A stretch of DNA of 64,000 nucleotides from assembly GCF_056712565.1 (NCBI RefSeq), contig NZ_CM160072.1. One strand, given 5' to 3'. The position numbers were made by a program. Below, in pieces: positions 27,501 to 30,500 of the stretch (its first letter is position 1; the number at the start of each line of letters is the position of its first letter).

Positions 27501-30500
27501 ATGCAGCACGGTTCCCGTCAGGTTGATCACCGGACGCAGCGCGCTTTGCGCCTCTTTCGTCAACCGGGCATCGACTTCTTGCGCCCAGTTTTCACACCAC
27601 GCGGGCAGCGTCTGGCTGTCACGAATCACTTCTCGCGCTTCGTCAAGCATCTGACGCAGCAATTCCACCACGCGGGTGTGACCATAAGTATCACGCAAAG
27701 AAAGGAAGGAGCTATCGCGCAATAAGCGATCAATAGCCGGAAGTTGACTATAGAGGGAACGCGTTTCGGTTGTCATAGGAAACCTGGCTGATCAAGGCCC
27801 TCTCACACGGAGAAGGGCGTTTAACATAACCACGGATTGTAACGTGAGATGGGTCAGGAGGACATATCGCGCATCAAGCCTTTGGCGGTTCGGTGCGAGC
27901 AAAACTTTCGCGGCTAAACAGGTTTTCGACCAGTTTGACTAAGTGTGGGCGGTCGACACACCAGCCTGGCGCAACGCGGCGGAAATTGAGATATCCGACG
28001 GCACAGGCAATGGCGATAGTCGCCAGATTGACCGTATCGGTTTTGAGTGTGCCATCGACCAGATATCCTTCCAGCACATCCAGACTGCGGTTGATTTTCT
28101 CACGCTGACGTAACAATTCATCTTCAGACTGCTGCGCCGCCGGACGCGCCTGTTCACGCACCGATACCAGCCCGGCATCCATAATGCCATCCGCCAGCGC
28201 CTCAATTTTGCGCACCCGCAACGACTCCAGCGGATCACGCGGCAACATCGCCGGAGCAACATTCATTAATTCAATATATTCAGCGATGATCGGCGAATCA
28301 AACCAGCATTCGCCCTCTTCGGTCACCAGCACCGGCACTTTTCCTAACGGGTTAAATTGCGCCACGCCGTTATCCGCGTTATAGGGCAGTTCATTAATAA
28401 ATTCGAACGTTATGCCCTTTTCTAACAACAGAATAGAAAGTTTGCGTACAAACGGGCTGGTGTAGCTACCGACGAGTTTCATGCCGAGTCCTTTGTGCGA
28501 GGAAAAATATCAGTATGGCTCAGGCTCGCGCAAAACACAGGTGATACAAGTCTCAATGATCCAAATAAAGATAATGCATCCAACTGGTCATTCTTAGCAG
28601 CACTTTCCGCATCACCGAAACATGGCTGAAATGGTCGGAGTAAACTGCCACCTGGGCGTAGATGCCGTCGGGTAAGGCATCGATATCAGCGTTAGGGTCC
28701 AGTTCAATGGTTCCCAGCACACCGTCCGTGCCGGGCACGACCGTTAATGATTGCAATACCCCCTGCGCCTGATAAGAACCGCCTGGCACGACAGGTAAAA
28801 TACTGGTCAGTTTGCCGTGAAACACCTGCCCAGGTAGCGCGTTAAACACCACTTCCGCATCATCGCCGGGTTTCAGACGTAACAGCGAGTTTTGCCGAAA
28901 TTGGGCGACAATTTGCCGTTTTTGCTCGGGGATGAAGACCATCACCGGACGCAGCGGCAAGGCAGCTGCGTATGTACCTGGGCGGATCAGTACCTGAGTG
29001 ACGTAGCCATTGCTCGGTGCGCGAATGACAGTCTGCTCAAGGTTATATTTTGCTTCAGTAAGTTGCGCTCTTAAGCTCACAATCTGCGATTGCTCGCCGT
29101 TAACCATACTGTCGAGCTGGCTCTGGATCTGCGCCTGCTCCGCCACCGAGCCTTTCACCAGCGCATCCTGCGCGAGGAAATTTTGCCGCGCATCGTCGAT
29201 GTCACGTTCCGAGAACGGATTCACCGCCGCCTGGCTGCCTTTCAGATAACGTTGATAATTTTTAAACAGACGGTCGCGCTCCGCTGAAACCTGGGTGGTG
29301 TTGGCCTGCGCTTCAGTGAGCTGCGCGCGCAGCGTCTTTATATTATGCGTCGCCGTCATCAGGTCTGCCTGAAGCCTGTCAACTCGCGCCTGGTAACGAA
29401 CCGGGTCGAGCTTAAAAAGCACCTCGCCCTTCTGAATAAGCTGATTATTTTTGTCGGTGACTTCAGTAACAATTCCCGTCACCTGTAGCGTGATGGGGAT
29501 CGCTATCACTGCCTTTTGCGCGGTAAAAGTGTAAGGGTGGTTGTAGTTCATCAACAAAATCAAACCACTCACCAGAAACACGCCTCCCAGCGCCGCCGTC
29601 GCCAGCGTCCACTGATTCACCGGAATGCGGAAGATTTTAAAGACCGCCCACGCCAGCGCCACGTAAGTTAAAACAATCAATAGATCCATAATTAGATCTC
29701 CGGAAACGTGGAATAGTCAGTCTTTTTCTCGGCGGCGAGTTGGTGCTCCAGCGGGAAATCCGGTCAGAAAGTGCGGCGATTTCCGCGTCAGTCGTTTTCT
29801 CTTGCGGCGTAACATGCGACTGCATGCCCCAGCCGCGCTCCGGTTGATAGAGCGTCGCCCAGATCCACAGGAACGGCCAGATAACATGCAGGGTAAACAG
29901 GCTTACCCAGCCCGCCGTATGAATAGCGTCGGCATGGGGATGGTTGCGCTTTTTGGCAATCAGATAAGGGATGTCATGTATCGCGATGATTCCATAAAAA
30001 ATCACCAGAAAGACGAAGATCAGCACTCCCAACGCGAAATAGTTTAGAAACATATCTGCCTCGGATTCACGTTTATCAGTGTTGTTTTTTGGCTGGCAGC
30101 CAGAAGGGAGTCAGGCTGATATTTTGACAATAATCCGGGTTCGCGATTCTCGCCATAACACCAAAGAATAATTTAAGAGGTGATGAGTTGCTTAGTTACA
30201 TAACGATTTTATGACGAAGGCATAACATGCTGTAGATCACATCAGGTGAACGCCGTAAGAAAATATCTTGTGATTCAGATCACAAAGATTCAACAAACCA
30301 TCAAAATAAAAATGTGACATAACTCACATTTAAATGCCATTTTTAGCGAAAATCGCCGCCTTGTTGCTTTTTTACACAAGCATTTTGTGATGAACATCAC
30401 GTCAATTACCTCTCTACCCCCTACATTTATGTGACTGATATCACACAAAAGGCCGCCGACTGGACAGTTAACCGATTCAGTGCCAGATTTCGCAGTATCT

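Follow-up and report, generated by a model that had tools for sequence, protein, structure and literature searches.

A one-base deletion in yibI of a single Escherichia coli assembly: candidate consensus error or recent private frameshift

Introduction

The yibI gene in the 64,000-base stretch of DNA analysed here (the window, from contig NZ_CM160072.1) reads as a frameshifted gene that runs into its neighbor yibH. The question that this locus raises is whether the organism carries a damaged yibI or whether one base was lost in the consensus sequence. Both genes are still listed without a characterised function (PMC11551758). In urine, strain UTI89 induced yibI 5.6-fold, and its yibI deletion mutant showed a competitive index of 0.33 there, together with weaker adherence to J82 bladder cells (PMC5404293); this deletion could be polar on yibH. 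UTI89 itself has an intact yibI, as found in its complete genome in the RefSeq-complete set. Among the mutations listed for E. coli lineages that had evolved in long-term stationary phase is a 1-bp insertion between mtlA and yibI (PMC7858067). The mtlA-yibI intergenic region of the window (30054..30588) is identical to that of strain AH21G053, the closest complete genome.

Results

The yibI reading frame and the missing base

The names yibI and yibH were taken from the RefSeq annotation of matching genomes. In the window, yibI lies between mtlA and yibH, the order also found in ATCC 11775, K-12, UTI89, and AH21G053. The features that define the reading frame are as follows.

29637..30053, minus strand: yibI as written, a frameshifted open reading frame (ORF) with its TAA stop at 29639..29637
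29751..29753, minus strand: codon 101 with the lesion (CGC, Arg), the reference CGG followed by C minus one G
29640..29750, minus strand: out-of-frame tail of 37 codons, with 7 K/R, 1 D/E, and 3 P

The ORF encodes 138 aa, consisting of 101 native and 37 out-of-frame residues, and its translation is exactly the product and the 37-residue tail quoted in the initial annotation of this stretch. When yibI was aligned with three complete genomes (ATCC 11775, a K-12-type strain, and KFu014), a single gap was observed, in agreement with the 1-bp frameshift near the 3' end of the gene noticed in that annotation. One G of a GG pair is absent at 29751/29752, which leaves a single G at 29752. In the sense-strand sequence, the reference TTTCCCGGCTGG is changed to TTTCCCGCTGG in the window, and on the plus strand CAGCCGGG is changed to CAGCGGG. 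The shift had been placed around 29745..29750; the deletion lies just beyond that range. Codon 101 is altered from CGG to CGC with Arg kept, and the frame is altered from residue 102 on, so that all residues from this position are replaced and the C-terminus is indeed changed, as had been claimed. Over 29690..29750, the alternative frame encodes 23 residues (window translation). Putting the G back yields the usual 120-aa YibI, followed by TAA, TT, and the ATG of yibH. This length is that of the reference YibI in the annotated matching genomes, as had been given for the repaired frame, whereas the spacing between the TAA and the yibH ATG, given previously as 4 bp, is 2 nt.

Quality of the window and its closest genome

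The closest complete genome, AH21G053, is that of a blood isolate from Melbourne. Over 64,000 bases, the window differs from it by one mismatch and one gap, and AH21G053 alone was free of mismatches over the middle 24.5 kb. APEC O1 was also among the near-identical genome matches, and we take the lineage to be B2, ST95. The mismatch, at position 8074, precedes the avtA ATG (8077) by 3 nt; here the window has G and AH21G053 has T. The base of the window is found in 5,410 of 5,423 genomes, and the odd base is private to AH21G053. Because the window carries the consensus base at 8074, the yibI deletion is the only private change in the 64-kb window. An in-silico edit of a genome from the RefSeq-complete set was also rejected: AH21G053, the one genome matching the middle 24.5 kb without mismatch, departs from the window at 8074, so that the window comes from a distinct natural genome outside that set.

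All 240 homopolymer runs of at least 5 nt in the window (73 of at least 6 nt, the longest of 8 nt) have the same length as in AH21G053. A homopolymer sequencing error, the technical origin put forward in the initial annotation, was therefore rejected, as the lesion is located in a 2-nt GG run beside CCC and no error was observed at the 240 long runs. CCCGG/CCGGG pentamers occur at 108 sites, covering ~0.8% of the window bases, and 107 of these sites agree with AH21G053. A low-quality, indel-rich assembly was also rejected, on the one mismatch and one gap in 64 kb. It had been advised that, in the case of such an error, the other apparent lesions in the window be viewed with the same caution as yibI; this advice no longer applies, since those features are common to the independent assembly of AH21G053. 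The other oddities of the window, being identical in an independent complete genome, are lineage biology. These results indicate that the rest of the window is reliable.

Search for the same deletion in other genomes, proteins, and metagenomes

A 501-base query around yibI matched 5,404 of the 5,426 complete E. coli genomes, with identities of up to 99.8%, and the matched stretch is 502 record bases long in almost every case. KFu014 was the sole exception with 501 bases; its missing base lies in the upstream intergenic A-run, and its yibI is intact. With a 61-base query centred on the deletion, no exact match was obtained among 1,090 genomes with the same background, and among the matches listed, all were at 98.4%, which corresponds to one gap. 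Likewise, the query with the K-12-type background had no exact match among 4,809 genomes. At the protein level, the exact 138-aa protein was not found in ~15 billion proteins. The junction peptide SDRISRWSTN was absent from the homology search of the protein collection, from the exact look-up, and from JGI metagenome contigs.

The deletion is thus private to this assembly and does not represent a natural allele class. The difference from the ~5,400 genomes is discrete, and a chance pattern is excluded. A reference allele with the 138-aa frame, named in the initial annotation as the observation that would speak against a lesion, was found nowhere at this site. With the junction absent from two DNA backgrounds, from proteins, and from metagenome contigs, a shared 138-aa allele was rejected.

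Other yibI frameshifts in public data

At least 16 E. coli-type protein clusters from the homology search end in the same out-of-frame tail as the window protein. These singleton or near-singleton clusters differ widely in the codon at which the frame changes. Many of the variants are 138 aa long because 1-base deletions in yibI that avoid stops in the new frame share the stop inside yibH. The entries P0001 to P0015, P0021, and P0032 resemble the window in being 1-base deletions that lead into the same frame and to the same yibH-internal stop, but they differ from it in that the shift lies elsewhere or a different base is lost.

The closest 138-aa entries, P0001 and P0002, are located on short Logan contigs. 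Contig L009 contains 4 indels in 2.3 kb, and contig L008, which carries P0002, contains 4 gaps in 962 bp; the contig of P0006 (L013) contains 10 gaps in 10.7 kb. In L008 (Logan ERR10498771), three of the four gaps are changes from CCCGG to CCGG (at ~161, ~544, and ~892), and one of these is in the same pentamer of yibI that has lost a base in the window. These results suggest a systematic miscall of CCCGG in at least one public read set, ERR10498771. In the sibling runs ERR10498880 and ERR10497793, the indels are mostly located in homopolymers. The 138-aa database entries were rejected as reference alleles, since their frames shift at other sites and the closest of them are on contigs with 4-10 indels.

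By contrast, P0007 looks like a genuine allele. It has lost a G from a GG pair at CAACCGGAGCG, in a CCGG context of yibI as in the window, and is represented by one NCBI assembly and two SRA runs. Its contig L011 differs from K-12 by one gap and five mismatches in 5 kb. The deletion from CAACCGGAGCG to CAACCGAGCG was observed in three clean contigs, L010 to L012, with the gene at 10001-10417 in L010 and at 2518-2934 in L011 and L012; L010 and L012 have ~40 mismatches to K-12. It was also observed in the error-prone B2-type contig L013 (2267-2683). The CAACCGGAGCG site, with its CCGG context, may be a hot spot at which the deletion recurs. Artefactual and real frameshifts of yibI both occur, and none has spread through a lineage.

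The yibI-yibH junction

The deletion also alters the junction with yibH, for which the following features are relevant.

28553..29689, minus strand: yibH, encoding an HlyD-family membrane-fusion-type protein of 378 aa, intact and identical to AH21G053
29692..29694, minus strand: native TAA stop of yibI, no longer in frame, with 2 nt (TT) between it and the yibH ATG
29637..29689, minus strand: yibI/yibH overlap of 53 nt, replacing the native TAA-TT-ATG
29698..29701, minus strand: GGAG Shine-Dalgarno-like element of yibH, within the 3' end of yibI, at a spacing of 8 nt from the ATG
29678..29702, minus strand: predicted RNA hairpin, -6.7 kcal/mol

The YibH protein matches PF00529 (7.5e-15) and PF16576 (3.2e-10), the HlyD and CusB-type domains, both above cut-offs. 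Its start codon is at 29689..29687. The 53-bp overlap between the shifted yibI and the start of yibH, described in the initial annotation, is seen from 29689 to 29637, and the adjacent stop-start arrangement present in the references (TAA-TT-ATG) is absent from the window. In the prediction, the hairpin pairs the 3' part of the Shine-Dalgarno-like element and the yibI stop codon with the AUG region of yibH. The 146-nt region across the junction folds no better than shuffled sequences (z = 0.36), and significant RNA structure across the junction was rejected on this value; the local hairpin of -6.7 kcal/mol remains.

A ribosome that stops at the TAA opens a hairpin 2 nt from the AUG, which is a classic set-up for termination-reinitiation. 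In the window, the removal of the stop-start junction by the overlap bears out the possible loss of translational coupling with yibH that had been raised. Ribosomes translating the window yibI would still melt the hairpin in passing but would terminate 50 nt past the yibH AUG. Judged from the sequence, reinitiation at yibH should be largely lost, yibH would then depend on de novo initiation at its GGAG element, which is still possible, and YibH output would probably fall.

The YibI protein and its C-terminal helix

The reference YibI of E. coli K-12, ATCC 11775, and UTI89 (WP_000479624.1 and WP_000479632.1) is a DUF3302 inner-membrane protein of 120 aa. Residues 1-101 of the window YibI are identical to the B2-type WP_000479632.1. 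Beyond them, the last 19 residues are replaced with the 37 out-of-frame residues, and the stop is displaced 55 nt further downstream, inside yibH. The domain itself is retained.

29820..30047, minus strand: DUF3302 (PF11742), residues 3-78, intact, 139.5 bits against a cut-off of 32

The match covers positions 1-76 of the 77-position profile. The AlphaFold model of an intact YibI orthologue (mean pLDDT 70, moderate confidence) has helices at residues 2-35, 41-68, and 88-112, with a disordered linker before the last helix. In this model, the DUF3302 domain would correspond to the two long helices (2-35 and 41-68), and the frameshift would sever the last helix at residue 102.

Among 29 orthologues from Escherichia, Citrobacter, Salmonella, Klebsiella, Kluyvera, Lelliottia, and others, L95, R98, L102, E103, and E119 are invariant, and I92-L95-I99-L102-L106 show heptad spacing. 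The window YibI keeps L95 and R98 of the conserved C-terminal helix and lacks L102, E103, and E119. These three residues belong to the lost 19-residue end, which is acidic, with 2 K/R and 4 D/E. The positive-inside rule would place the K34-K35-R36 loop in the cytoplasm and the C-terminal tail in the periplasm, and the strongly basic tail of the window protein might disturb the membrane topology. The window yibI is a lesioned or miscalled copy of a DUF3302 family member.

Origin of the deletion

The deletion, its uniqueness, and the cleanness of the remaining window are plain from the alignments and searches. As for the cause of the deletion, we lean slightly toward a technical error over a real mutation, although the sequence alone cannot separate the two. 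We infer a residual consensus or assembly error to be the likeliest origin, with about an even chance of being correct: an error at the CCCGG/CCGGG pentamer would have produced the one-base loss in codon 101 of yibI, and the organism would then have a normal YibI of 120 aa, with yibI and yibH joined by the native TAA-TT-ATG. The other serious candidate, to which we assign a probability somewhat short of one half, is a genuine and very recent mutation private to the isolate.

The nature of the change argues for an error and against a mutation, as the one private difference found in 64 kb, a 1-base indel, is accompanied by no private substitution. In E. coli mutation accumulation, real substitutions outnumber indels by ~10 to 1, and residual assembly errors are mostly 1-base indels. 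The location of the deletion points the same way. The motif is miscalled systematically in at least one public read set, where the miscalls in L008 include the very pentamer of yibI, and such pentamers make up only ~0.8% of the window; the nearest 138-aa database entries are likewise on indel-rich contigs (L009 and L013). No second genome, protein record, or metagenome contig carries the deletion. Furthermore, yibI is under purifying selection across E. coli and is intact in almost every genome of the species, and a real lesion in its invariant residues would be disfavored by selection. The effect of a real lesion on yibH expression is itself a deduction.

Three observations stand against an error and favor a real mutation. 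First, the window is clean at every one of the 240 long homopolymers and at the 107 other CCCGG/CCGGG sites, whereas long runs should be the first to fail on an error-prone platform. Second, the window has lost a G from GG, whereas the systematic loss in L008 is of a C from CCC. Third, P0007 provides a read-supported precedent on clean contigs, a similar and apparently genuine GG to G frameshift in CCGG found in three samples. The origin of the window in a distinct natural genome, as opposed to an edited copy, also speaks for a real mutation. The at least 16 E. coli-type clusters of YibI frameshifts also indicate that such lesions arise sporadically, and the deletion has effects that can be read from the sequence, on the helix, on the charge of the tail, and on the hairpin over the stop and AUG. 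The fitness of the UTI89 mutant in urine suggests that yibI matters in this lineage (PMC5404293).

A 138-aa frame that is normal, either as a natural long allele or with programmed recoding to yield the 120-aa protein, is highly improbable: 138-aa proteins with the same C-terminal tail do exist in the protein collection, but they shift at various positions, are near-singletons, and come in several cases from error-ridden contigs, while the shifted arrangement at this site is found in none of ~5,400 complete genomes, orthologues in other genera keep the in-frame helix, and the codons at the site (ATT TCC CGC TGG) form no slippery heptamer, so that programmed frameshifting, with neither conservation nor a slippery site, was rejected. 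Quasi-palindrome templating by CCGG-ATTTC-CCGG was also unsupported, since it predicts a change from CCC to CC, as in L008, and the change in the window is from GG to G.

Consequences of a real frameshift

If the deletion is real, which we consider slightly less probable than not, the window holds a private yibI allele of a B2 extraintestinal pathogenic isolate of the APEC O1/UTI89 group, in which the DUF3302 membrane hairpin would be kept, the invariant half of the C-terminal helix destroyed, and yibH translation uncoupled, in a lineage without yiaW-yiaV at its K-12 site. Such an allele would deprive the yibIH module of some or all of its function and, as a natural separation-of-function variant, could serve to probe this uncharacterised pair of membrane genes. 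It would also be one more sporadic loss-of-function allele, modestly useful for work on yibIH and unsurprising. Either way, the case is commonplace: a private frameshift or a consensus error in a known gene about which little has been established. The yibI call should be flagged as "frameshifted, verify with reads"; the annotation of a 138-aa protein is unwarranted.

Related modules and neighboring loci

A paralogous pair of K-12, YiaW-YiaV, likewise combines a DUF3302 protein and an HlyD-family protein, with little space between their genes. Over 100 aa, YiaW shares 79% identity with YibI, and its C-terminal helix retains the R-I-x-x-L-E-x-Q-L motif; the identity between YiaV and YibH is 77%. 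The locus is different, yiaW-yiaV being located between araD and aldB in K-12, and yiaWV was detectable in 3,801 of 5,426 complete genomes, compared with 5,404 for yibIH. When YiaW and YiaV were searched against the window by tblastn, the only matches were yibI and yibH themselves. In this lineage, araD (19389..20084) and aldB (20131..21669) are separated by a 46-bp gap (20085..20130); the same site in K-12 holds yiaT, yiaU, and yiaW-yiaV.

In modules of the AaeX-AaeA-AaeB type, a small membrane protein is combined with an HlyD-family adaptor and an efflux pump. As in yibIH, the gene for the small inner-membrane protein is located directly upstream of the adaptor gene. Unlike the Aae module, no pump gene adjoins yibIH, and AaeX belongs to a different small-protein family from YibI.

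Several further features were observed in the window. A gene for a Fic family protein (21777..23072) is located between aldB and yiaY, which are adjacent in K-12. The spacing between yibF and yibH is 70 bp (28483..28552); in K-12, an Rhs element of ~8 kb with rhsA, yibA, yibG, and pseudogenes lies between these two genes. At 35981..36664, there is a pseudogene with an internal stop (RefSeq, AH21G053), which is a lineage feature because it is common to the independent AH21G053 assembly. It adjoins a 4.75-kb gene for a YadA-like adhesin (36708..41459) that contains an internal repeat, 38268..38548 being 85.8% identical to 38502..38782.
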